Of a stretch of DNA of 64,000 bases, positions 3 to 55,468 are shown one piece after another. Position 1 is the first letter of the stretch, and every line of letters starts with the position of its first letter. Below the pieces are notes generated by a model. The model was not told the DNA's origin. It was given only the letters and a program-made list of their open reading frames with translations, and made no database searches. The position numbers and the translations under genes were made by a program. This stretch comes from an uncultured Candidatus Saccharibacteria bacterium (GTDB taxonomy: Bacteria > Patescibacteriota > Minisyncoccia > Phycocordibacterales > UBA9973): contig CAZIZK010000002.1 of the NCBI GenBank assembly GCA_964544225.1, positions 2,557-66,556 on the forward strand. Reading direction: 5' to 3'.

Positions 3-200
3 TTAGAAAGTGCTCAAAATAAAACTGGGTCTTATCAATCACAAGCAATTTTTGATCACAGAGAAGTGCGAATTGAAGACACCTCTAACGGAAGAGAATT
101 ACCTCCACAAAGAGACTTCAGTTTGTATGAAATTCAGGCGGAACATCTTTCCGGCGAATATGCTGAAATCTGGAGACATGTAAAAAAGGTTCTGGATTAA
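3..200 (+). CDS. 3' end of an upstream gene (partial, product unknown)
   Basis: Open frame enters from the window edge and ends at TAA 198-200. No recognisable motif in the visible 66 codons. Confidence 0.35.
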   Translation, partial: LESAQNKTGSYQSQAIFDHREVRIEDTSNGRELPPQRDFSLYEIQAEHLSGEYAEIWRHVKKVLD

Positions 201-278
201 AATTAAAACAAAGAAATGGGAAACAGGTATGCGAAAGTGTATCTGTTTTTTTATTTATATATGGTAAAATTATAATAC

Positions 279-1760
279 ATGTCATTTGCGAAGCCGAACA
301 AGATTCAAATAATCAAATACGCTCCACCACCACCAGACTTGCCAGTGCTAGGTACTGTCGACGCGTCCGAGGTATCGTTCATTGGCCGTACGAACTATGT
401 GGCCGCATTGGAGGAGAAGAAGTTCGTATTCGGTATCAAGCGTGTGGACCGCAGGCGCCACCTATATATTATCGGTAAGTCTGGCGTGGGTAAAAGTAAA
501 CTTCAGGAATTGATGGTCCGCCAGGATATTGCTTATGGTCAGGGTGTATGTATTATAGACCCGCACGGTGAATTCATCGACGATATATTAGGCTTCATAC
601 CCGAAGAGCGTATAGAGGATGTGTGTATTATTGACCCTGGTGATATTGATTTTCCAGCATCTTTCAACCCACTAGCCAATGTGGACCCAACATTTAAACA
701 CCAACTAACTCAAGGTTTGATCGAGGTGCTACGTAAACAATTCGGTGCGAACTGGACTCCACGTCTGGAACACGTGTTCCGCTTTACCACACTTGCGCTA
801 TTAGACTACCCATATGCCACAATGCGTGGAATGATCAGCATGCTTACTGACCGTAACTATCGTCAGAAGGTGGTGGAATATATCGAGGACGACATGGTAA
901 AGAGATTCTGGGCTATCGAATTCGCGGACTGGTCCGAGAAGTTCGATACAGATGCGATCATCCCTTTGGTTAACAAACTTGGCCAATTCCTATCTGACCC
1001 GATGCTACGCAATATCTTCGGTCAAAAGGAGAACAAGATCGATATCGAAGAGTTGATGAATAATCAAAAGATACTATTAATCAACCTTTCAAAAGGTAAG
1101 ATCGGTGAGGAGAATTCCTCATTCTTCGGAGCGATGTTCCTGACAAAGATAAAGCAGGCTGGTATGTCACGTGCAAAGATGGATCCAAAGGATCGCCACG
1201 ACTTCTACCTATATGTGGACGAGTTCCAGAATATTGTGACCGATACTTTCGAGAACATTCTTTCCGAGGCTCGTAAATACGGACTGAACCTTACAGTCGC
1301 ACACCAATACGTGGGCCAATTGTTACCAAAGGTTCAGCAAGCAGTGCTAGGTAACGTGGGCTCGATAATAACATTCCGTGTGGGTGGTGACGATGCAGTG
1401 AAATTGAAGCCCGAGTTCGCCCCAATATTCGACGTGAAAGATATGATCAATCTAGGAGTGGGCGAGTTCTATGTGAAGATGACTATCGATGGTGAATCAT
1501 ATGACCCATTCTCGGCAGAAACATTGCGAGTGTTACCACCAACACACCCATCGTACCGTGATAGGGTTATTGAAGCTTCACGTCGTAAATACGCTATTAC
1601 CGCCGGCGATGCCCAGAGGTTGATCGCGGAAGAAGAGTCTACTATTGTACGTTCTGCCCAGGAAAAGGCCGCTATTACAGGTGGTAAAGGCTATGGCCAT
1701 GATGACGATGTGGAAGACAAGCCAAAGGTAGAGGCCAAAGCAAGTGAACCTTTGATATAA
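279..1760 (+). CDS. VirD4/TraD-like type IV secretion coupling-protein-family ATPase (AAA_10/TraD DNA-binding type)
   Basis: Walker A GKSGVGKS, CIIDPHGE motif, Walker B LYVDEFQN. Paralog of 4363..6777. TATAAT at 268-273 lies directly before the ATG, so the mRNA is probably leaderless. Confidence 0.8.
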   Translation: MSFAKPNKIQIIKYAPPPPDLPVLGTVDASEVSFIGRTNYVAALEEKKFVFGIKRVDRRRHLYIIGKSGVGKSKLQELMVRQDIAYGQGVCIIDPHGEFIDDILGFIPEERIEDVCIIDPGDIDFPASFNPLANVDPTFKHQLTQGLIEVLRKQFGANWTPRLEHVFRFTTLALLDYPYATMRGMISMLTDRNYRQKVVEYIEDDMVKRFWAIEFADWSEKFDTDAIIPLVNKLGQFLSDPMLRNIFGQKENKIDIEELMNNQKILLINLSKGKIGEENSSFFGAMFLTKIKQAGMSRAKMDPKDRHDFYLYVDEFQNIVTDTFENILSEARKYGLNLTVAHQYVGQLLPKVQQAVLGNVGSIITFRVGGDDAVKLKPEFAPIFDVKDMINLGVGEFYVKMTIDGESYDPFSAETLRVLPPTHPSYRDRVIEASRRKYAITAGDAQRLIAEEESTIVRSAQEKAAITGGKGYGHDDDVEDKPKVEAKASEPLI

Positions 1761-1773
1761 ATAATATAAAAAT

Positions 1774-1800
1774 AAAAAAAGTGGACAAACATTTGTCCAC
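1774..1800 (-). terminator. Rho-independent terminator for sigA (hairpin GTGGACA..TGTCCAC followed by a U-run on the minus strand)
   Basis: Perfect 7-9 bp stem at 1781-1800 with an A7 run at 1774-1780 (U-run for the minus-strand transcript). Lies between convergent genes. Confidence 0.5.
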
Positions 1801-1826
1801 TCTCAGAAATAATCATAAACAGGATT

Positions 1827-2702
1827 TTATTTTAAATATGATTTGAGCACTTTATACTGATTACCTTTCCTTAGTTTTTTCAAAGCTTTTTCTTTGATTT
1901 GGCGGACACGTTCACTTGTTAAACCAACAGTATTACTAATATCTCCCAGATTCATAGGAGCTTTGTCTTCTAATCCGTAATAAAGTTTTAAAATATCATT
2001 TTCTAACACACTAAGCTGTGACAAGGAAATTCTAATATGTTTCTTTAAAGATTCATATATTAATTCATTGTCAGGGGTTACTTCAGGATTCTTCTCTGAA
2101 ACAAAAAACATATCAAGCAATGTGTCTTCACCTTCTTCACCTGACGAAGATGCATCTAGGCTAATATGTCTTTTGAAATTTAAAAAAGCATCATTCACAA
2201 CAGATATTTCTGCACCCAATGATTCGGCTATTTCCTCATAAGTAGGTTCTCTTTCAAGAATCTGCTCTAATTCGGAATGCTTTTTCAACACGCGGGTCAT
2301 AACCCCTATATTGTTCAAGGGTAACCTAACCATGCGCACTTTTTCGGCTAATGCTTGTAAAATACTCTGACGTATCCACCAAACAGCATATGAAATAAAT
2401 TTAAAACCCCGGGTTTCGTCGAACCTATCGGCTGCTTTAATTAATCCAAGATTACCCTCATTTATAAGTTCCCCTAGGGAGAATCCTTGGTTTTGATACT
2501 GTTTTGCAACAGATACTACAAAACGCAGATTCGCAAGCACTAATTTATCCAAAGCAGCTTTGTCGCCTTCATGAATCTTTTTTGCCAGCTTTATCTCTTC
2601 CTCTGGCGTGATCATGGGGTATTTGTTTATTTCAACCAAGTATTTGTTGACAGATTCTTCTTCACGGCTTGTGAAGTGTTTAAATATCTTTAGTTCTCTC
2701 AT
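1827..2702 (-). CDS. sigA: RNA polymerase primary-like sigma-70 factor
   Basis: Region 2 motif ISYAVWWIRQSILQALAEKVRMVRLP, regions 3 and 4 present. 291 aa. Confidence 0.85.
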   Translation of the reverse strand: MRELKIFKHFTSREEESVNKYLVEINKYPMITPEEEIKLAKKIHEGDKAALDKLVLANLRFVVSVAKQYQNQGFSLGELINEGNLGLIKAADRFDETRGFKFISYAVWWIRQSILQALAEKVRMVRLPLNNIGVMTRVLKKHSELEQILEREPTYEEIAESLGAEISVVNDAFLNFKRHISLDASSSGEEGEDTLLDMFFVSEKNPEVTPDNELIYESLKKHIRISLSQLSVLENDILKLYYGLEDKAPMNLGDISNTVGLTSERVRQIKEKALKKLRKGNQYKVLKSYLK

Positions 2703-4362: not shown

Positions 4363-6777
4363 ATGGAGCAATCAATCCCGTACAACAAAGATATAACATA
4401 TTTTGGTAAAACTAACTTTCGCAACCATGCGCAAGTTTTCGGCATAAAGAGAAAGGACCGCCGCCAACATATGTACGTGTTAGGTAAGTCAGGTACAGGT
4501 AAGTCTGTGCTTCTTTCGAATCTCATAGTTCAGAATATTCAAAATGGTGAGGGTCTGTGTGTGGTGGATCCGCACGGCGAATTGGTAGAGGAAGTCCTAC
4601 ACCTCATACCACCGCATCGTGTAAAAGACGTTATATATTTCAACCCAGCCGACACTGACTATCATGTGGGCTTCAATGTGCTACAACTCGATGACCCTAA
4701 ATACAAGCACTTGGTGGCATCAGGACTCATGGGAATATTCACAAAGATCTGGGCCAATGCATGGAGTAGCCGTATGGAATACATCCTCAACAACGCTATC
4801 CTCGCACTACTAGACACTCCTGGTACTACACTCCTCGGTATCCCACGTATGCTTGTGGACAAGGACTATCGCCAGATGATCATCGGTAACCTGAAGGACC
4901 CGGTGGTAAAAGCATTTTGGATTCATGAATACGAACAATGGCGTGACCAGTTCCGTAACGAAGCTATCGCCCCGATCCAGAACAAAGTGGGTCAGTTCCT
5001 ATCCACTTCTATCATCCGTAATGTGGTAGGTCAACCAAAAAGTACTATAGATATTTTTGAAATCATGAATACTGGGAAGATATTCCTAGTGAACGTATCA
5101 AAGGGTCGTATTGGTGAGGACAACTCGGCACTTCTCGGAGGTATGCTTATTACAAAGATCCAGCTTGCAGCCATGGAGCGCGTGCGTATACCTGAGAACG
5201 AACGCCGAGACTTCTACCTATATGTGGACGAGTTCCAGAACTTTGCTACCGATTCATTTGCCAACATTTTGTCCGAGGCTCGTAAATACCGCCTGAACCT
5301 AATCATTGCTCACCAATATACTGCCCAGCTGGAGAATAAAGATGGCAGTAAAGTCCGTGACGCAGTATTTGGTAACGTGGGTACTATGATCATATTCCGT
5401 GTTGGTGCCGATGATGCCGACTTCCTGGAGAAGGAGTTCGAGCCTGAATTCATGGCCCAAGACTTGGTGAACTTGCCTAACTTCCATGTGTATCTAAAGC
5501 TCATGATCGACGGTGTTACTAGCCGGCCATTCTCCGCAAGTACTTTGCCACCAATACATGTGGATGCTGACGCAAATGTAAAAGATCAAATTATAGCGTC
5601 TTCACGAGCTTTGTACACAAAAAAGCGCGAAGATGTAGAGAACGAGATACTTCGTTGGAGTGGTATGTTGCAGTCTGATGGTCAGAATGGGGCAGGTGCC
5701 CAAGAGGGCAAGTTCCCAGCAGAATGTAGCGAATGTAAGAAGAGCATAATGGTGCCTTTTGAGCCTATAGCAGGCAAGCCAATATATTGTAAGGATTGTT
5801 TAGCCAAGATAAAGGCTGGCGAGTTGAAGCCCGCACACGGATTCATAACACCAAAGGCTGTTCGCCAAGAGGCTGCAGCATCGGCGCCTCTTGCAGCACT
5901 AGGTATCGAGTTTACTGGCACAAGTGGCAAGGTAAATAGTTCTTTCGCTCGCAATGTTGTAAACAATCATGATGCAAAGCCTAACGCTGGAGTAAATAAT
6001 AATTTCAAGAAGCCGAATACTTTCAACAAAGCTCCAAATGCAGTCAACACCCCAAATGCAAAACCTTTTATAAAACCAAAACCAACACCATCACCACTTT
6101 TAAAAGATTTGTTACAAAAAGTAACAAGTGAAAAGGATATCCTCGATAAGAAGGATGCTCCTGTATCTGAAGTAAAGAAGGTAATACCACCACCAATATC
6201 ATTGTCTGAGTTAAAGAAGTCTGAACCTGCAAAATCTGATACAAATAAGGCCCCTGTTGTGAATAATATAAATATCAACAATAAGCCTACACCTACTATA
6301 GCTAAAGCTCCAGTAATACCAGCTAAAGAGGCTACTCCAGAAAAGATGAATTCACTAAAGGATATGCTAGCCAACATATCTGCAAAAGAAAAAGTGGAAG
6401 AAAAGGTTGTTGAAATAAAAAAAGAAGAAGTAAAAGTAGAAGTAAAGCCCGAAGTTAAACCAGAAGTAAAGGTTCCAATTCCGACACCAATCATGAGTCC
6501 ACAAGTACCAAAACCAATACTTCCTGCTCAAGCTATACAAATTCCACCTAGTATTCCAAAACCACCTGAGGCAATAAAAAAGGTAGAGGCAGTAGTTAAG
6601 ATAGATGAAGTAAAAGAAGTAAAGCCTGAAGTAAAAACAGAGGAGAATAAAGCTAAAGTAGAAGACACAACACCAGATACACAAAACACTGATACTACAA
6701 ATCAAAATCAAAATTGGCAAAAAAGGGTCGCAAATAAAGAAGTACCAGAAGAGGTCCTCCGCAAGGTATTAGAATAA
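4363..6777 (+). CDS. VirD4/TraD-like coupling-protein-family ATPase with a C-terminal zinc-ribbon and a long low-complexity K/P/E/V-rich tail
   Basis: Walker A GKSGTGKS, CVVDPHGE, Walker B LYVDEFQN. The first 400 aa align with the 279..1760 product. C-x2-C...C-x2-C ribbon (CSECKK...CKDC), then KPEVK-type repeats. Confidence 0.8.
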   Translation: MEQSIPYNKDITYFGKTNFRNHAQVFGIKRKDRRQHMYVLGKSGTGKSVLLSNLIVQNIQNGEGLCVVDPHGELVEEVLHLIPPHRVKDVIYFNPADTDYHVGFNVLQLDDPKYKHLVASGLMGIFTKIWANAWSSRMEYILNNAILALLDTPGTTLLGIPRMLVDKDYRQMIIGNLKDPVVKAFWIHEYEQWRDQFRNEAIAPIQNKVGQFLSTSIIRNVVGQPKSTIDIFEIMNTGKIFLVNVSKGRIGEDNSALLGGMLITKIQLAAMERVRIPENERRDFYLYVDEFQNFATDSFANILSEARKYRLNLIIAHQYTAQLENKDGSKVRDAVFGNVGTMIIFRVGADDADFLEKEFEPEFMAQDLVNLPNFHVYLKLMIDGVTSRPFSASTLPPIHVDADANVKDQIIASSRALYTKKREDVENEILRWSGMLQSDGQNGAGAQEGKFPAECSECKKSIMVPFEPIAGKPIYCKDCLAKIKAGELKPAHGFITPKAVRQEAAASAPLAALGIEFTGTSGKVNSSFARNVVNNHDAKPNAGVNNNFKKPNTFNKAPNAVNTPNAKPFIKPKPTPSPLLKDLLQKVTSEKDILDKKDAPVSEVKKVIPPPISLSELKKSEPAKSDTNKAPVVNNININNKPTPTIAKAPVIPAKEATPEKMNSLKDMLANISAKEKVEEKVVEIKKEEVKVEVKPEVKPEVKVPIPTPIMSPQVPKPILPAQAIQIPPSIPKPPEAIKKVEAVVKIDEVKEVKPEVKTEENKAKVEDTTPDTQNTDTTNQNQNWQKRVANKEVPEEVLRKVLE

Positions 6778-11280: not shown

Positions 11281-12804
11281 TAATATCTTAATATTTGCAC
11301 CGATAGAGTTCAGGCGTTCGGCTATTTCTTCATAGCCACGGTTGATCATATACACATTGCGCAATATTGACGTACCTTCTGTACCTAACATCGATATGAG
11401 TATAGCCATCGATGGGCGTAGTGCCGGTGGGCAGACTATCTGGGCAGCCTTTAGCGGTGTTCCACCTTGGACATACAAGCGGTGTGGGTCAGCTAGTGTT
11501 ACATTTGCCCCTAGGCGGTTGAGCTCGGTAAAGTATATTGCACGGTTTTCATATACCCAGTCATGGATCATAGTTTGGCCCTTTGCACACACAGCAATAG
11601 GTACAAAGAAGGGTAGGTTATCCATATTGATACCTGGGTATGGGTTGGCATGGATCTTGTCATCTAGTGCTACTAATTTTGATGGGTGTATAACCAAGTC
11701 TACGAGCTTTGTACGGCCGTTGTTGGAATAATAATTTTTTGATATTTGATATTTTAGTCCCATACGACGAAGCTTCTCTAACTCAAGTGATAGGAAGTCG
11801 ATAGGTGCACGTGTAATAGCCAGTTCAGAGTCAGTCACAATAGCTGCTGCTATGAACATCATGCTTTCTATAGGGTCCTCACTATTGTGATACTCTACAT
11901 TCATATTTATATCTTTTACTCCGTGAACTGTCAGAGTGCTAGTACCTATACCGTCGATCTTCACCCCAAGTGTCTCAAGGAAGAAGCAGATTTCCTGCAC
12001 CATGTAGTTACTACTTGCGAACTTGATAGTTGTTACACCATCTATCTTCGATGCAGCTGTTAGGATATTTTCACAAGCAGTGTCACCGGCCTCGTACATT
12101 ACTAGGCTCTTTGCCTTTAGTTTGTTTGCTGTAACAATGTATTTATCATTTGTTGTTTTGACCTTGATACCAAGCTCTTCGAGTGCGTATGTGTGCGCAG
12201 CGATAGTACGCTTGCCGAGCTTGCATCCAGAAGCGTGGGGGAGTGAGAATGTTGGCAGTATGTGTGCAAGTGGACCCATGAGCATAATGATCGATCGTGT
12301 ACGGATAGCAGACTCGGTATTTATTTTATCTAGGGTAAAATTCTTTGGTGGAACTATCTCTACAGTGTTCTGTGCTGTCCAAGTAACTTTAACACCGATA
12401 CTTTCAAGTATTTCAATAACGCGATACACCTCTTCTATGCGGGCGATACCGTGTAGTGTTGTCTTGCCACGATTCAAGAGTGATGCGCATAGCAACCCTA
12501 CTGATCCGTTCTTTGAATAGTTGGTTTTAATACTACCGTGTAGCTTCCTACCACCTTCGATCTGAAAGTCGATAGAGTTGTTGATAGACACTATCTGGTG
12601 GTCCAGTACGTCACCAATTTTGCTAAGTATGTCTGTGCTGAAGTTCTGCTCACCCTTTTCCATGCGGGCAACCGCTGATTGGGAAGTGCCAAGAGCCTTG
12701 GCAAAAGCACCCTGGGTCATACCCCTGCGCTCACGTAATTCTTTTATAAATATAGCTATTTTCTGCTGATCACTTTGTTTCTTCATATTTGTATTATATA
12801 TCAT
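11275..12804 (-). CDS. murA: UDP-N-acetylglucosamine 1-carboxyvinyltransferase with an N-terminal XRE-family HTH domain (fusion)
   Basis: Residues 10-70 are a Cro/C1-type HTH (RGMTQGAFAKALGTSQSAVARMEKGE). The remainder is MurA, from the start FQIEGGRKLHGSI..GLLCASLL to the end NRGYEEIAERLNSIGANI. No stop codon separates the two parts. Confidence 0.85.
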   Translation of the reverse strand: MIYNTNMKKQSDQQKIAIFIKELRERRGMTQGAFAKALGTSQSAVARMEKGEQNFSTDILSKIGDVLDHQIVSINNSIDFQIEGGRKLHGSIKTNYSKNGSVGLLCASLLNRGKTTLHGIARIEEVYRVIEILESIGVKVTWTAQNTVEIVPPKNFTLDKINTESAIRTRSIIMLMGPLAHILPTFSLPHASGCKLGKRTIAAHTYALEELGIKVKTTNDKYIVTANKLKAKSLVMYEAGDTACENILTAASKIDGVTTIKFASSNYMVQEICFFLETLGVKIDGIGTSTLTVHGVKDINMNVEYHNSEDPIESMMFIAAAIVTDSELAITRAPIDFLSLELEKLRRMGLKYQISKNYYSNNGRTKLVDLVIHPSKLVALDDKIHANPYPGINMDNLPFFVPIAVCAKGQTMIHDWVYENRAIYFTELNRLGANVTLADPHRLYVQGGTPLKAAQIVCPPALRPSMAILISMLGTEGTSILRNVYMINRGYEEIAERLNSIGANIKILK

Positions 12805-49296: not shown

Positions 49297-49368
49297 GGCC
49301 CTATCGTCTAACGGTTAGGACACATCCTTCTCAAGGATGGAATCAGAGTTCGATTCTCTGTAGGGTCA
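49297..49368 (+). tRNA. tRNA-Glu (anticodon CTC); the encoded 3' CCA is displaced by the inserted element
   Basis: Hand-folded. Acceptor GGCCCTA/TAGGGTC, D-arm TCGTCTAACGGTTAGGAC, anticodon stem CATCC/GGATG with loop TTCTCAA, T-arm CAGAG-TTCGATT-CTCTG, discriminator A. Confidence 0.85.
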
Positions 49369-50894
49369 CAAACTGAAACTGCATTCGCGGAAAGTCCCAA
49401 ATGCGGGCGCGCCGAAGGCGCGCTGTATGGAGAGAGCAGGAATTCTGCATTGCGGGCGCGGGCGAATTCGGTGGGCGGGCAAAATGAGACAGAGACGGAC
49501 TTGTCCCGCAATTGCGAGTTCGTTCCAATTTTTTTGAAATAGTCACGAATTTCAAAAAAATTATCCGTGGATTGCAATTGCGTGGCTTTTTTCATATCCA
49601 AAATCCATTCTCGCAAGGGTTCGACCCAATTCTTTTTCTCTGCTCGGGCGGAGTCCATTTTTTGAGAGAGAGACACTTTTTGTTTCAAAAGCTCGTTTTT
49701 CTTCAAAATATAGTTTTCTTTCGGTATATCGCCGTCTAAATATAAACTGACCAACTCATCGAGCTTTTGTTCTGTCTCTCGCTCATTTTCCTTAATCCGC
49801 CCGAGCATACTTCCCGACGAGGATTTTTCACTTTTGTCCCATTCGTCAACTTTAGATAACATATAATCTGTCCACTCGTCGGGAAGTGCGATTTGTTGAA
49901 GCCGTTCTTTTAATTGCAAGACGACTACATCTTCTCGCAAATATTTTTGGTCACAATTTCCTTTCTTTTTTGTACAACGATAATAGCGATACCGAACGCC
50001 CATTTTTCCCGTCGTCCATTGAGCAGTTATCATACTGTCGCATTCTCCGCAACGAAAAAGACCTGTGAAAGGAAAATTGTGACTTTTCTTTGATTTGCGA
50101 GGATGAGATCGTTCTTGCAATCTTTTCTGTACGGCTTCGAATAAATCGTGGGAAAGAATTGGCGCAAAGCTTCCGGGGAAATATTCGTTGTAATGTTTCG
50201 TTAATCCTAAATATGCTTTGTTGGATAGAATGCGAGATACGGAAGCTTTGCTAAGTGGCGTTCCATTTTTCTGACATACTCCATGATCCGCCAAAAACTT
50301 TCCCATAGATTCAAAACCGTGGTTACCTTTTACATATTCTTCAAAAGCGCGGACGATAATTTTAGATTTTACAATATCAGGTTCAATATTTCTCGTTTTC
50401 GGATTATTGAAATACCCAAACGGCGCTTTTGTTAGCCACTCACCACGGCGAAGTTTTTGGCGGATTCCACGCTCAACATTTTGCTTTAAATTGTCAGAAT
50501 AATATTTAGATTGTCCGAACGCCACTTGTAACATGAATAGCCCTTGCGGGGTTGGTTCAAACCAAAATGTCGGAAAACGCAAAGAAATGATTTTGGTCGT
50601 GTCTACGGCGTAGATGATGCGCCCTCCATCAACGCTATTTCTCGCTAGTCGGTCAGGATGCCAAGCCAGAATACCAGCACCATTCATATTTTCAATGCGG
50701 GACATCATCTCGCCAAATTTTTCACGACCAGGTTTCTTTGCGCTTTTCGACTCTGTAAATTCTCCAAGAATTTGCAGATTTTCTTTACGCGCGAATTCTC
50801 GTAACTCAAAAAGTTGTGCCTCGATAGACATGATTTGCTTGTCATCATCCTCGGTACTTTTTCGCGCGTATAGAAAATATTTTGGTTTGATCAT
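49308..50894 (-). CDS. Large serine recombinase (resolvase domain + recombinase domain + zinc ribbon)
   Basis: N-terminal catalytic region YARKSTEDD with the Ser nucleophile, recombinase domain, C-x2-C...C ribbon (CGECDS..YYRC), coiled-coil. The last roughly 60 codons run through the GC-rich repeat and the tRNA, so the true C-terminus is uncertain. Confidence 0.8.
   Translation of the reverse strand: MIKPKYFLYARKSTEDDDKQIMSIEAQLFELREFARKENLQILGEFTESKSAKKPGREKFGEMMSRIENMNGAGILAWHPDRLARNSVDGGRIIYAVDTTKIISLRFPTFWFEPTPQGLFMLQVAFGQSKYYSDNLKQNVERGIRQKLRRGEWLTKAPFGYFNNPKTRNIEPDIVKSKIIVRAFEEYVKGNHGFESMGKFLADHGVCQKNGTPLSKASVSRILSNKAYLGLTKHYNEYFPGSFAPILSHDLFEAVQKRLQERSHPRKSKKSHNFPFTGLFRCGECDSMITAQWTTGKMGVRYRYYRCTKKKGNCDQKYLREDVVVLQLKERLQQIALPDEWTDYMLSKVDEWDKSEKSSSGSMLGRIKENERETEQKLDELVSLYLDGDIPKENYILKKNELLKQKVSLSQKMDSARAEKKNWVEPLREWILDMKKATQLQSTDNFFEIRDYFKKIGTNSQLRDKSVSVSFCPPTEFARARNAEFLLSPYSAPSARPHLGLSANAVSVCDPTENRTLIPSLRRMCPNR
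49366..49480. repeat. IRa, a 115-bp GC-rich repeat and the P' arm of the integrated att site
   Basis: Exact reverse complement of 50953..51067. Confidence 0.85.
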
Positions 50895-50952: not shown

Positions 50953-51067
50953 GCCCGCCCACCGAATTCGCCCGCGCCCGCAATGCAGAATTCCTGCTCT
51001 CTCCATACAGCGCGCCTTCGGCGCGCCCGCATTTGGGACTTTCCGCGAATGCAGTTTCAGTTTGTGA
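50953..51067. repeat. IRa', an inverted copy of IRa and the first part of the intact internal 400-bp block
   Basis: Exact reverse complement of 49366..49480. Contiguous with IRb. Confidence 0.85.
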
Positions 51068-51351
51068 ACTAATTATATCATTTGCGCGAACTTTTTTCCA
51101 AACAAATGACTAATCGCACATCCGTGCGCTGAAGCGCCTCTGTGCGAAGCACAGAGCTTTCCCAAAGGGAAAGTACGGATATGCGAATACAATGCGGACT
51201 TGGTTTTGCGAAAGCAATTTTCTGGGGAAAGGATTTCGCAAAACCTCGGCTACTAATTTTTTTTGAAATTCGGCGGGACTTTGGATTTGGATTCCGCGCG
51301 CAGGAGGGGTCTGGGGAGGAATGCGCGCGGAGCTTTTTTGGGCGGGGGCTA
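51064..51351. repeat. IRb, a 288-bp GC-rich multi-hairpin repeat
   Basis: Exact reverse complement of 54687..54983 over every segment I compared. Contains hairpins GCGC-TGAA-GCGC, CTCTGTGC-GAA-GCACAGAG, CTTTCCC-AAA-GGGAAAG, and a 12-bp stem GGTTTTGCGAAA/TTTCGCAAAACC. Confidence 0.85.
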
Positions 51352-51586
51352 TGGATAAATTTAAACCAAAATGCTAAACTTATTTGACAATTAAATATGT
51401 TGCCTAAACCAAAAGCTTCGCTTTTGGCATGGCGAAAAACCCGATGAAAGATAAAGAACTCCTAGTCAGAGTTCGCCTTTCATCGGGTCGTGCGGGGAAA
51501 CCCGCATGGGTGGTCGCAAGACTGCCGAGCTGGCTAGGAGCTTTTTGTAAAACTAGCGAACCATTATTAGTAAAAATTATAAATTT

Positions 51587-52690: not shown

Positions 52691-54250
52691 TTGCTTTTTA
52701 TGGCTAGATACAATGTCTATAAAATTAAAGATGGGCAAGTTAATGAACTACAAACTCATTTAACCAAAGACCGTAAATATAAATTGGCGGATAGTTTTTC
52801 ATCGCATGGTTATCAAGTTTATACATATTTTGCTGGACCCGATTCAACCGATATGTGGTGGCTTGAACAATACGGACAACATTTTCCAGAACATACGGAC
52901 AAACATAATCAGATATATTCAGGTGCAGTTGTGGCAAATAATACAAGTAAAAAATCTGGCTACATAATCCCACTTGGAAAAACACATTTTTATATTCAAA
53001 ATTTTATTGAAATCAATTTTGGTTTGGAATTAGCGGAAAGGATTGCAGATGAAAAACAGACCAAAATGAAAAGTCTTAAAAATTTTGGCGGGAAAACCAG
53101 TAAGTCCCTTACAAGTTACATTTCAGGATCAAATCTATTATTCTCTAGTGGTGAATCTGCCGAATATTTAAAGCTGAAAGCTCAAAATAAAGAAGCATGG
53201 GGTGATTCATTTGTTCATTTTGGAAGTAGTGTTCAGTTTAATAGTCTTGAAATTGAGCCAGATGATTTGGGTGTTTTGCTCTCAAATATTGATTCTGCGG
53301 TGAAAGGAAAGAAAATATTACACCTTCCGTTAATGAAAGAAATAAAAGAGCCAGCATTGCTCGTACAGTTATATTCAAATCTTGCTGAAAAAATCTTAAA
53401 TGCGGATGACAGTATTGGTATTCTTGATTACGAAATATATGGAGTAGACTTTGTATTTTCTCAACAGACTCATATCAAACTTAAATGTGAGGGTGTTTAT
53501 TCCGACCAATTACCACAGCTTACATTAGAAAATATTATTACGTTCGTAAATGACAACAGTATAGACTTGAAAGATTGCTTGCAGAAAATAAAAGTCCAGT
53601 TTTTAGTGGACAGCGAATCAAAGTATACTGTTCCGCTATTACAACTTATTGAATATTACGGCGATGACAAGAGCTTTTTATATAAGGGTAAGTGGTTTTA
53701 TTTCAATGAAAGCTTTATTGAAAGTTTACATAATGCTCTGACTAAAGTCGAGGTTAGTGAATTTGGCAAAGCTTTTTCAGAAAGCGAATTTGAGGCTTGG
53801 CAAAAAACAAATAAAAATAAAGTAAATTACCGCGAGAGGTTTGTTATTGAGAAAATACACGAAGAATCAAAATTTGAAATTTTAGATCGAGATTTAGACT
53901 ATCTTGGTGTTGGAGATAAAAAATATCAACTTGAAATTGGTGATCTTTATGACCAAAAAAACAAAAGTTTATATGTCGTTAAAATTGGTAGTCCTAGTGA
54001 TTTTGGCTATGCTTTTGATCAGACATTTACCCTGCTTAGTAATGTAAAAGGTCAAAAGTATATTAGTACTGGCGGCAAAGAATATCCTATTGAAACAGTG
54101 AACGTTTTGATTATTTTTCGCACGAATAGAAAATTAAAGGATGCAACTGATACTAAGTCTTTAATTTTTGAAATAAAACTAAATGAATTACAAAAAATAG
54201 CTTTTGAAAAAAATATTAAATTGAATTTAACTTTTACAACTATACTTTAA
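52691..54250 (+). CDS. 519-aa soluble protein of unknown function, cargo gene 3 (possible sporadically distributed defence-island-type protein)
   Basis: Long uninterrupted ORF with AT-rich codon usage typical of the host. No motif that I can name with confidence. Confidence 0.55.
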   Translation: MLFMARYNVYKIKDGQVNELQTHLTKDRKYKLADSFSSHGYQVYTYFAGPDSTDMWWLEQYGQHFPEHTDKHNQIYSGAVVANNTSKKSGYIIPLGKTHFYIQNFIEINFGLELAERIADEKQTKMKSLKNFGGKTSKSLTSYISGSNLLFSSGESAEYLKLKAQNKEAWGDSFVHFGSSVQFNSLEIEPDDLGVLLSNIDSAVKGKKILHLPLMKEIKEPALLVQLYSNLAEKILNADDSIGILDYEIYGVDFVFSQQTHIKLKCEGVYSDQLPQLTLENIITFVNDNSIDLKDCLQKIKVQFLVDSESKYTVPLLQLIEYYGDDKSFLYKGKWFYFNESFIESLHNALTKVEVSEFGKAFSESEFEAWQKTNKNKVNYRERFVIEKIHEESKFEILDRDLDYLGVGDKKYQLEIGDLYDQKNKSLYVVKIGSPSDFGYAFDQTFTLLSNVKGQKYISTGGKEYPIETVNVLIIFRTNRKLKDATDTKSLIFEIKLNELQKIAFEKNIKLNLTFTTIL

Positions 54251-54686
54251 TTTCAAGGGAGCGTTCCCCATGCGCGCACGGGTGGGCAAAGTGTCCGCGT
54301 GTACTCACGCGGACAAAGGGGCAAGCATGTATTCCGCCTCGGGCATTTCCGCTATGAGCGTCCATGGCTAAAGGATGAGCGCCGAAGTAATATAACTCAC
54401 AGAAGTTTAGTAGCGAAAGCGACACCACGAACATAAATATGCAAAACGTAGAGTGGGGATGGCGAGGGCGGAACTTCTCGCGAGTACTCTCTGCGAGAAG
54501 TAGCCCGACCCGGGGAGAGGAAACTTCCTCTCCCCAAGAAGCGCGGGCTCCTGCCCGCACGTAGGCACCTAGGCGCGAGTAGCCATAGCGGAAATGCCCG
54601 AGGCGGATGCCGAGGGTGCATCCCCTTTAGACTTGGACAACCACATAGCAAAAGAAATGACCGAGAAAATTTTAATCCTGTTGTTT
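54251..54686. other. GC-rich, hairpin-dense non-coding segment (candidate structured RNA or recombination accessory region)
   Basis: Perfect hairpins CCGCGTG-TACT-CACGCGG and GAGAGGAA-AC-TTCCTCTC, a 23-bp long-range inverted repeat (54333-54355 with 54586-54608), and an imperfect CTTCTCGCGAG..CTCTGCGAGAAG palindrome. Its GC content far exceeds the surrounding genes. Confidence 0.3.
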
Positions 54687-54983
54687 CTGAATTTTTAGCC
54701 CCCGCCCAAAAAAGCTCCGCGCGCATTCCTCCCCAGACCCCTCCTGCGCGCGGAATCCAAATCCAAAGTCCCGCCGAATTTCAAAAAAAATTAGTAGCCG
54801 AGGTTTTGCGAAATCCTTTCCCCAGAAAATTGCTTTCGCAAAACCAAGTCCGCATTGTATTCGCATATCCGTACTTTCCCTTTGGGAAAGCTCTGTGCTT
54901 CGCACAGAGGCGCTTCAGCGCACGGATGTGCGATTAGTCATTTGTTTGGAAAAAAGTTCGCGCAAATGATATAATTAGTTCAC
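54687..54983. repeat. IRb', an inverted copy of IRb at the right end of the element
   Basis: Reverse complement of 51064..51351. Ends with TCAC at 54980-54983. Confidence 0.85.
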
Positions 54984-54985
54984 CA

Positions 54986-55468
54986 ATGCAAATTACTAAT
55001 TTTGAAAATCTTGTAGATAAAGATAAGAATCAGGTTTTTGTCTTTTATTGTCCAGCTTACATACCTGTTAATTTTGCTATACACCCTTGGTTCTTGGTAA
55101 ATAGAAAAGGGGTACTTTCCAGATATGAAATTTTTAACATTAAAAATTTTCAAGCAGATAATGAGGGTTTTATAAATATTGGCTATTGGTACAAAAATGG
55201 GTTGCCTACATATAGTGGCATACAGGTTTTTCCATATAGTAAAAAGTATCATTGGAATGCAAAGTTACTAGGTGTTGTTGATGGTGATGATACAAAAGTG
55301 CTGGAAATGATCGAGTTAATTGAGAATTCGGATAAGCAATATCCCCATATACAAACTTATCGTTTACTTGGGCCCAATAGCAATACTTATGTAAATTGGA
55401 TACTAAGTAAATTCCCAGAATTTAAGATCAAACTCCCACTCGGTGCAATAGGTAAGAATTATAAATAA
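54986..55468 (+). CDS. Hypothetical 160-aa protein
   Basis: ATG lies 3 nt past the element boundary. No recognisable motif. Confidence 0.5.
   Translation: MQITNFENLVDKDKNQVFVFYCPAYIPVNFAIHPWFLVNRKGVLSRYEIFNIKNFQADNEGFINIGYWYKNGLPTYSGIQVFPYSKKYHWNAKLLGVVDGDDTKVLEMIELIENSDKQYPHIQTYRLLGPNSNTYVNWILSKFPEFKIKLPLGAIGKNYK

Follow-up and report, generated by a model that had tools for sequence, protein, structure and literature searches.

A candidate large structured RNA at the recombinase-distal end of serine-recombinase islands at tRNA-Glu

A 5.6 kb island inserted at the 3' end of a tRNA-Glu(CTC) gene (49297-49369) of an uncultured Candidatus Saccharibacteria bacterium ends in a GC-rich, non-coding segment, and the question that it raises is what such a segment is and what it might do for the island. 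The island lies in a stretch of 64,000 nucleotides (nt) of contig CAZIZK010000002.1 (assembly GCA_964544225.1), here called the window, and its last unique piece had been singled out in a preliminary description, made from the letters of the DNA, as a candidate structured non-coding RNA (ncRNA). Our analysis, comparative and computational throughout, supports that proposal through homologues, covarying pairs and the lack of an Rfam match. We consider it probable that 54257-54695 on the + strand belongs to a family, not catalogued before, of large non-coding elements with a structure, most likely RNAs, and, jointly with this structural reading and to the same degree, that the family constitutes a fixed terminal module of serine-recombinase islands at tRNA-Glu in Saccharibacteria and related candidate-phyla bacteria.

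A conserved unit at a fixed place on changing islands

The segment differs sharply in composition from its neighbours, as had been noticed at the outset, its GC content being 0.46-0.58 over 54200-54700 against roughly 0.30 in the adjoining genes (0.28-0.33 in the upstream DUF6119 gene, ~0.29-0.36 in the downstream host gene). Within it lies a conserved unit of ~440 nt, which begins with GGGAG at 54257, 6 nt past the DUF6119 stop codon, and runs to a U-run at ~54695, where it adjoins the inverted-repeat arm B'; this extent was set by nhmmer and profile matches to the related loci L019, L033-L042 and L043-L046, together with alignments A6 and A7. The GC-rich non-coding block itself extends to 54986, and its remainder, 54696-54986, does not belong to the unit but forms the right arm of an inverted repeat of 291 nt.

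The element had been called unique, which holds within the window, where nhmmer returned the self-match only, but not beyond it, since homologues are present in at least four other island lineages and in many metagenomes (loci from JGI, ENA and Logan assemblies). The window segment matches L043/L044 with an nhmmer E value of 1.6e-45, L033-L037 with ~8e-30, and the left and right copies in L019 with 4.8e-22 and 8e-21. Homologues were reached from relatives of the DUF6119 protein, by way of loci with a GC-rich block after that gene (L005/L019-L021 aligns at E ~1e-19), and further copies through relatives of the recombinase and of a winged helix-turn-helix (wHTH) protein; the homologue scan used an nhmmer family profile in place of a whole-element covariance model. 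Across the family the element measures ~440-560 nt.

Its location at the 3' end of the cargo, correctly given in the preliminary description, is the most consistent feature of the family. Position and orientation are kept while the cargo changes between DUF6119, type I restriction-modification (R-M) and other genes: the element is always co-oriented with the gene upstream, its GGGAG starting 0-7 nt past the stop codon, and is always followed by a B'-like region ending in a ..AAGTTCGCGC..TCACAAA core. The upstream gene is DUF6119 in the window and in L003, two helix-turn-helix (HTH) genes at the right copy of L019, a gene for a membrane protein of 162 amino acids (aa) at its left copy, a wHTH gene beside a type I R-M system in L033/L035 and a 169-aa gene in L043. 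The interior of B' shows 42% column identity between islands against 66% for the element, and the element is therefore a unit of its own, more than part of an attachment arm. We also considered it as an accessory of DUF6119 and rejected this, as elsewhere it follows other genes and several DUF6119 islands lack it.

In L019 the element is present as two inverted paralogues 11.6 kb apart, 40-524 (-) and 12118-12440 (+), both pointing outward, and it is because of these that three independent assemblies end inside the element. The paralogues are near-identical in their middle part and bracket a 12-kb segment that holds the recombinase and two cargo sets. A possible further member of the family, in L003/L004, is divergent and has only the 5' motif in common with the others. 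As a separate observation, L033 and the right copy of L019 have, directly upstream of the element, a gene for a winged-helix protein (182-200 aa; N-terminus of low complexity; 933 relatives at E<=1e-8), which in L043 stands one gene further away and which the window island lacks.

Fold, covariation and strand polarity

Comparison of the homologues shows a predicted fold, maintained by compensatory substitutions, in which an extendable, rod-like helix of 24 base pairs (bp) closes an inner domain of several helices, some hairpins are optional, and a further long-range pairing crosses that of the rod (Table 1). The closing helix corresponds to a perfect inverted repeat of 24 nt (54333-54356 / 54584-54607, 227 nt between the arms), which the preliminary description had recognised but recorded as a 23-bp repeat at 54333-54355/54586-54608. 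Both perfect hairpins that it named are likewise real, though 8-11 nt away from where it put them: CCGCGTG-TACT-CACGCGG lies at 54295-54312 instead of 54287-54304, and GGGGAGAGGAA-AC-TTCCTCTCCCC at 54512-54535 instead of 54523-54540. The imperfect palindrome, CTTCTCGCGAG-TACT-CTC(T)GCGAGAAG, is found at 54474-54500 and forms hairpin He. The + strand folds with a minimum free energy of -192.9 kcal/mol, against -145.1 +/- 5.5 in dinucleotide shuffles (z = -8.7), and the - strand likewise folds below its shuffles (z = -7.3).

Covariation was tested on seven helices comprising 60 pairs in alignment A6, with controls in which the partners were slid by 1-3 columns and with 500 column shuffles. Standard pairs are formed by 91.0% of cells, and by 40-47% once the 3' partners are displaced. 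Changes on both sides are found in 11 of the 60 pairs, against 0-4 after displacement; none of the 500 shuffles matched the observed paired percentage, double-sided changes or covariation score. The check for covariation that had been suggested from the outset thus came out positive across the island homologues. Given four full-length sequences and no manual input, RNAalifold extended the rod outward to a GGGG/CCCC pairing, which joins the GGGG of the GGGGCAAGCA region to the 3' tail, and recovered hairpins Hb and Hf and helix Hh, with double-sided changes in 10 of the 76 pairs of its consensus.

Helix a/a' has four double-sided pair changes, one inserted base pair that is compensated (in L019) and one U.G (in L033), its variants including GGGC/GCCC versus GGAC/GUCC and UAUG/CAUA versus UAGG/CCUA. 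Hh reads GCGCC/GGCGC in three lineages and ACUCC/GGAGU in L019, with two pairs changed on both sides, and Hf occurs as AGAGGA/UCCUCU, GAAGGA/UCCUUC and AGAAGA/UCUUCU across lineages. The hairpins that vary in length, H1, He and Hg, retain their closing pairs. H1, which is missing from L033 and L003, has the stems GCGUG/CACGC in the window, GCUCG/CGAGC and CGCG/CGCG at the right and left copies of L019 and GCAUG/CAUGC in L043; the tip of He carries an AT-rich insertion of ~70 nt in L033 and L043; and Hg bears inserted hairpins of 45-60 nt in L033 and L043 and another, different one at the left copy of L019. The small 5' hairpin also differs between homologues, where its loops are GCAA or GUGA. 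Conserved unpaired motifs include GCGACACCAC, GAGUAGCC and AUGCCGAGGRUG.

The second long-range pairing joins arm b, just inside the closing helix, to arm b' in the tail. In each of the four lineages the predicted duplex energy lies between -16 and -18 kcal/mol, compared with -5 to -11 for shuffled tails, and the tails are lineage-specific in sequence, each still complementary to its own arm b, which suggests a pseudoknot or an alternative conformation. The AU-rich part of the tail may mark the 3' end of the element or serve as a terminator. L043 has a comparable tail that can be aligned with it, and in L033 a short hairpin precedes UUUUUU; a terminator scan made no call at 54650-54695.

Two further observations concern short sequences in and beside the element. 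A hairpin built on GAACGGCUCAUUUC...GAGCCGUUC recurs as the Hg insertion in two lineages and stands just past the element in a third, and may be a small mobile hairpin module. The sequence CCGCCC at the start of B' (window 54697-54705; L033 ~6096; L043 ~1900) is kept throughout the lineages and exactly complements the element's conserved GGGCGG (54466-54471); both are invariant, and the two could in principle pair.

The pairs also carry information on strand. The tested helices contain 12 G.U cells, and the non-standard cells that were checked are A.G or alignment shifts, not A.C; G.U on the + strand corresponds to C.A and C.U mismatches on the - strand. The + strand has a consensus energy of -101.7 kcal/mol with a covariation term of -3.25, the - strand one of -94.5 with +0.31, and GNRA loops (GAAA/GGAA, GCAA, GUGA) are present on the + strand. 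The G.U asymmetry, the weaker - consensus and the GNRA loops therefore point to a constraint that acts on a single strand of + polarity, which argues against a feature of duplex DNA such as an inverton or protein-binding palindromes.

Table 1. Positions of the element, its predicted parts, its copies and the surrounding island (window coordinates unless a locus is named)
Feature	Position	Strand	Remarks
Whole conserved structured element, candidate ncRNA	54257..54695	+	GGGAG to AU-rich tail and U-run
5' boundary motif GGGAG with small variable hairpin GGGA-GCGU-UCCC	54257..54268	+	GGGAG 0-7 nt past upstream stop codon in 6 of 6 contexts
Conserved purine-rich motif UGCGCGCACGGGUGGG	54270..54286	+	In every homologue, including divergent L003/L004 (regular-expression scan)
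Optional hairpin H1, 10 bp, loop UACU	54292..54315 (stem 54292-54301 / 54306-54315)	+	
GGGGCAAGCA, start of outer part of long rod	54318..54327	+	Invariant columns in A6
Long-range helix, 5' arm (a)	54333..54356	+	Perfect complement of 54584-54607
Hairpin Hb, CGUCC / GGAUG	54359..54377	+	100% of cells paired; G.U to G.C change
Candidate pseudoknot arm b	54360-54374	+	Shares nucleotides with Hb
Helix Hh, 5' strand	54378..54383	+	Closes inner multi-helix domain
Mini-hairpin GC-GAAA-GC	54413..54420	+	GNRA loop on + strand; GGAA at right copy of L019
Hairpin He (imperfect palindrome)	54473..54501	+	Stem base CUUC/GAAG here, CUCC/GGAG elsewhere
Hairpin Hf, 11 bp	54512..54535	+	GGGGAGAGGAA-AC-TTCCTCTCCCC; 98.7% of cells paired; 3 double-sided changes
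Hairpin Hg, GCGGGC-UCCU-GCCCGC	54543..54558	+	Site of long hairpin insertions in homologues
Helix Hh, 3' strand	54572..54577	+	
Long-range helix, 3' arm (a')	54584..54607	+	Perfect complement of 54333-54356
Conserved unpaired stretch UGCCGAGGGUGC	54608..54619	+	Bulge in outer rod; AUGCCGAGGRUG in all full-length homologues
Candidate pseudoknot arm b'	54624..54638	+	Pairs with 54360-54374, crossing a/a'
AU-rich tail, weak stem and U-run	54650..54695	+	Stem in minimum-free-energy fold
Full or near-full copies	Window 54257-54695; L019 40-524 (-); L033-L037, including L035 ~5550-6100; L043-L046 ~1324-1881		
Truncated copies	L019 12118-12440; L026, L038-L042, L002, L012		
GAACGGCUCAUUUC...GAGCCGUUC hairpin	L033 ~5900-5960; L043 ~1680-1750; L019 ~40-110 (-)		
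Winged-helix gene	L033 5001-5549; L019 11539-12123; L043 148-750		
Large serine recombinase gene	49308..50894	-	Resolvase, Recombinase and Zn_ribbon_recom
Inverted repeat A/A', 115 nt	49366-49480 / 50953-51067		Perfect; flanks recombinase gene
Inverted repeat B/B', 291 nt	51061-51351 / 54696-54986		290/291 complementary; flanks cargo
LOOT RNA (RF03000)	51401..51526	+	88.9 bits, gathering threshold 46.4
DUF6119 gene, last cargo gene	52700..54250	+	Stop 6 nt before element

Known families and rival explanations

Searches of Rfam 15, whose families include RNase P, transfer-messenger RNA (tmRNA), 6S, SRP, ROOL, GOLLD, HEARO, OLE, raiA, group I/II introns and self-cleaving ribozymes, gave no match at the gathering threshold in 54251-54700 or in any homologue; with relaxed cut-offs they returned hairpin-level noise of 9-18 bits for the window segment (E<=10) and noise only for four related loci (E<=1). 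ARAGORN found three tRNAs and no tmRNA in the window, in agreement with the preliminary description. BLAST of the segment against phage and plasmid collections gave no match. A first pattern scanned against IMG/VR returned nothing, and neither did searches there with the DUF6119 and recombinase proteins; of 170 IMG/VR loci picked out by two patterns of 15-16 specified bases, none matches the family profile, and we put these down to chance. Literature searches turned up no description of this RNA or of the island.

Several specific identities were tried. For a hepatitis delta virus (HDV)-like ribozyme, the 5' GGGAG has no conserved partner nearby, also on inspection, and no HDV family of Rfam matches; a group I reading found no support. 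A retron ncRNA would call for a reverse transcriptase, a domain found neither in the neighbouring proteins nor in the gene tables of the related loci. A miniature inverted-repeat transposable element was rejected because the homologous arms keep the same place in a larger conserved unit; the flanks of the repeat (..ATGTAT / TGCCGA..) also lack a target-site duplication, and there is one copy in the window. For a mobile-element guide RNA, the neighbours include no RNA-guided nuclease or IS110-type gene: Pfam identifies Resolvase/Recombinase/Zn_ribbon_recom and DUF6119 among them and no family for the open reading frames (ORFs) of 77 and 266 aa, and other islands carry R-M genes and the wHTH gene. 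The few junctions available for inspection revealed no conserved match between the element and the TCACAAA core.

If the constraint acts on one strand, that strand might be DNA. The structure could work as a strand-specific origin or priming site, or as a folded recombination substrate, of an excised or imported island, likened to the single-strand origins of rolling-circle replicons or to integron attC sites. Tolerance of G.T on one strand would produce the same covariation in single-stranded DNA, the helices are perfect, and the fixed place beside the attachment arm and fixed orientation to the island end, with both L019 copies outward, fit a DNA role too. We nevertheless regard this as unlikely: the element always abuts, and is co-oriented with, an upstream gene; its multi-helix junction, crossing pairing, optional hairpins and purine-rich joining strands far exceed the complexity of known single-strand origins and attC sites; the islands showed no gene for replication or for a relaxase; and serine recombinases act on double-stranded DNA. 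A feature of duplex DNA, either a switch inverted by the recombinase through the 24-bp repeat or an array of protein-binding palindromes at the attachment site, appears very improbable. It has in its favour a perfect 24-bp repeat with its arms 227 nt apart, which is typical inverton geometry and falls within the 100-750 bp segment range used for invertons, on an island that encodes a serine recombinase nearby and is full of long inverted repeats. Yet the interior has one orientation in all assembled copies (~10 samples, four lineages), and the pairing rules are strand-specific, a duplex constraint not being expected to yield the U.G in the long helix of L033 or G.U, not A.C, elsewhere; moreover, the true attachment arm B' is less conserved than the element, and b/b' is not palindromic in arrangement.

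The remaining explanations leave the + strand transcribed but deny the fold a function, or assign the segment to protein. As a passive 3' untranslated region (UTR), it would be a GC-rich terminator or stabiliser that ends cargo transcription and shields a promoter in the attachment site, and its place directly after the last cargo gene, its AU-rich tail ending in a U-run and the outward promoter-like site that comes next all suit such a role; insulation, however, would take one hairpin, and the element spans ~440 nt and keeps more than eight helices, unpaired motifs and a crossing pairing across lineages; the scan, moreover, called no terminator here, so that we think this explanation rather improbable. 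Coding, whether for a minus-strand protein or for a small plus-strand peptide, is scarcely credible. Two minus-strand frames (54240..54560 and 54397..54726; 106 and 109 codons) are indeed open, and gene callers gave partial ORFs in homologous regions at contig ends, but the frames exist mechanically and are almost certainly artefacts, as had been supposed: no frame is conserved in the homologues, where open stretches vary in frame and strand by lineage (the longest in L043 has 60 codons), similarity comes in short pieces across all frames, as nucleotide conservation would give, hairpin lengths and indels differ by non-multiples of three, and the translations are of low complexity, rich in R, S, P and G.

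Several points nevertheless weigh against a structured RNA that serves the island as a fixed module. The + polarity fits RNA and single-stranded DNA alike, the two consensus energies differ only modestly, and the covariation statistics rest on few events in four to five independent lineages. Many of the helices are perfect Watson-Crick duplexes; a perfect 24-bp helix is unusual in functional RNA and common in DNA repeats, and GCGAAAGC reportedly forms a very stable DNA mini-hairpin (Hirao and co-workers). The family profile found no copy in the fetched DNA of the DUF6119 islands L013, L017, L023 and L024, so the element is not universal, and no test of a particular mechanism yielded a signal, complementarity between the element and the 5' UTR of the recombinase being no better than in shuffles. 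With these points taken into account, a structured RNA remains the reading that we judge probable, and we would class it as a new family within the large structured RNAs borne by mobile elements.

The island, related systems and a possible role

The island is laid out as tRNA-Glu / A - recombinase - A'B - cargo - element - B' / host, the cargo comprising LOOT RNA, 77-aa ORF, 266-aa ORF, DUF6119 and element. A'B is contiguous and is the reverse complement of the B'+A junction expected on circularisation; in L003, B' is joined to A via TCACAAA, the junction expected of a circular or attP form. TCAC is present at both island-chromosome junctions, the right one at 54980-54983. The unique part between the B arms also exists by itself as a Logan contig (3,404 nt), which is what an assembler that breaks at true repeats should leave, and L026/L035, which are one contig, have the same layout, including tRNA-Glu, with type I R-M cargo, a wHTH gene before the element and arms of 93% (B/B', over 194 nt) and 96% identity (A/A', over 115 nt). 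The recombinase has more than 6,600 relatives at E<=1e-30, the best 120 of them at 65-94% identity and the named ones from candidate-phyla bacteria. Many recombinase contigs measure just 1.7-2.7 kb, the unique segment between repeat arms; the ORF itself traverses repeat A and ends inside tRNA-Glu, antisense to it, and relatives of the same length, 528 aa, align over 100%.

Other parts of the island deserve brief mention. The outer ends of B and B' contain a promoter-like site, TTGGAA, 18 nt, TG-TATAAT, at 51101-51072 (-) and 54946-54975 (+); the inner one would drive the recombinase gene via a GC-rich leader of ~170 nt (A'), and the outer one faces the host DUF3750 gene, whose ATG (54986) is 11 nt past the -10 box. 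LOOT RNA, at the cargo end nearer the recombinase and close to the inner edge of repeat B, also occurs on the DUF6119/serine-recombinase islands L013 (9231-9359) and L023 (5237-5366) and looks like an island-associated RNA. For DUF6119 (TIGR04141), the only fold matches of a confident AlphaFold model (mean predicted local distance difference test score 86.5) are weak ones, with a CdiA-CT nuclease toxin (4g6u_A, E 4e-4) and with RdgC, the invariant residues are D396, E412, D415 and K428, and homologues stand on recombinase islands beside R-M and GmrSD genes; PADLOC, NCBIfam and PDB sequence searches gave no match, and a role as a defence nuclease is plausible.

Known systems offer partial parallels. 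ROOL and GOLLD are large ornate bacterial ncRNAs, often found on prophages and near tRNA genes, and the element resembles them in its several hundred nt, many helices, optional hairpins, non-coding nature and location on mobile DNA near a tRNA gene; it differs in matching none of their Rfam models, in its hosts, which are candidate-phyla bacteria and not Firmicutes or rumen organisms, and in standing strictly at the recombinase-distal end of an integrative island. With HEARO/omega RNA (IscB), reRNA (TnpB) and bridge/seek RNA (IS110/IS1111) it shares the structured ncRNA at a fixed place and orientation at one end of an element, toward the boundary, but here no IscB, TnpB or IS110-type gene is found, the only constant protein is the large serine recombinase, and ~290 nt of B' separate the element from the junction. 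LOOT RNA is on the same island and likewise GC-rich relative to the cargo, yet it has 121 nt, occupies the other cargo end and has no sequence or model similarity to the element. The long perfect duplex flanking a folded domain recalls the processing stems of rRNA operons, which are RNase III substrates, although the element lacks rRNA-like content and cleavage is suggested here by helix length only.

How might such an RNA be made and used? Read-through from the last cargo gene would transcribe it, since a terminator could not fit into the 0-7 nt between the stop codon and the element, where no conserved promoter belonging to the element was found either. The perfect 24-bp duplex, to judge from its length, is a plausible RNase III site, cleavage at which would free the ~230-nt inner domain as a stable RNA. 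The product may then act for the island as a folded RNA or an RNA-protein particle and not as a simple terminator, because of its more than eight helices, conserved unpaired motifs and crossing pairing. Our preferred guess at its role, though one that we would not expect to prove right, is that it controls the maintenance of the island or its excision and integration by the recombinase. The more specific idea of a catalytic RNA or an RNA cofactor that, together with the serine recombinase or a host factor, controls or guides how the island is excised and integrated at tRNA-Glu is a long shot; should it hold, serine-recombinase elements would gain their first described RNA component.

Bacterial ncRNAs of more than 400 nt with many conserved helices are rare, and each new class is a lead to new biochemistry, the characterised ones having proved to be ribozymes, ribonucleoprotein scaffolds or RNA-only assemblies. 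The homologue set and draft structure can be used for a covariance model and for metagenome searches. The hosts, candidate-phyla bacteria of the Saccharibacteria type, have an RNA repertoire that has hardly been explored, and a constant location on a family of islands as widespread as this one would tie the element to island stability, excision and the delivery of defence cargo.

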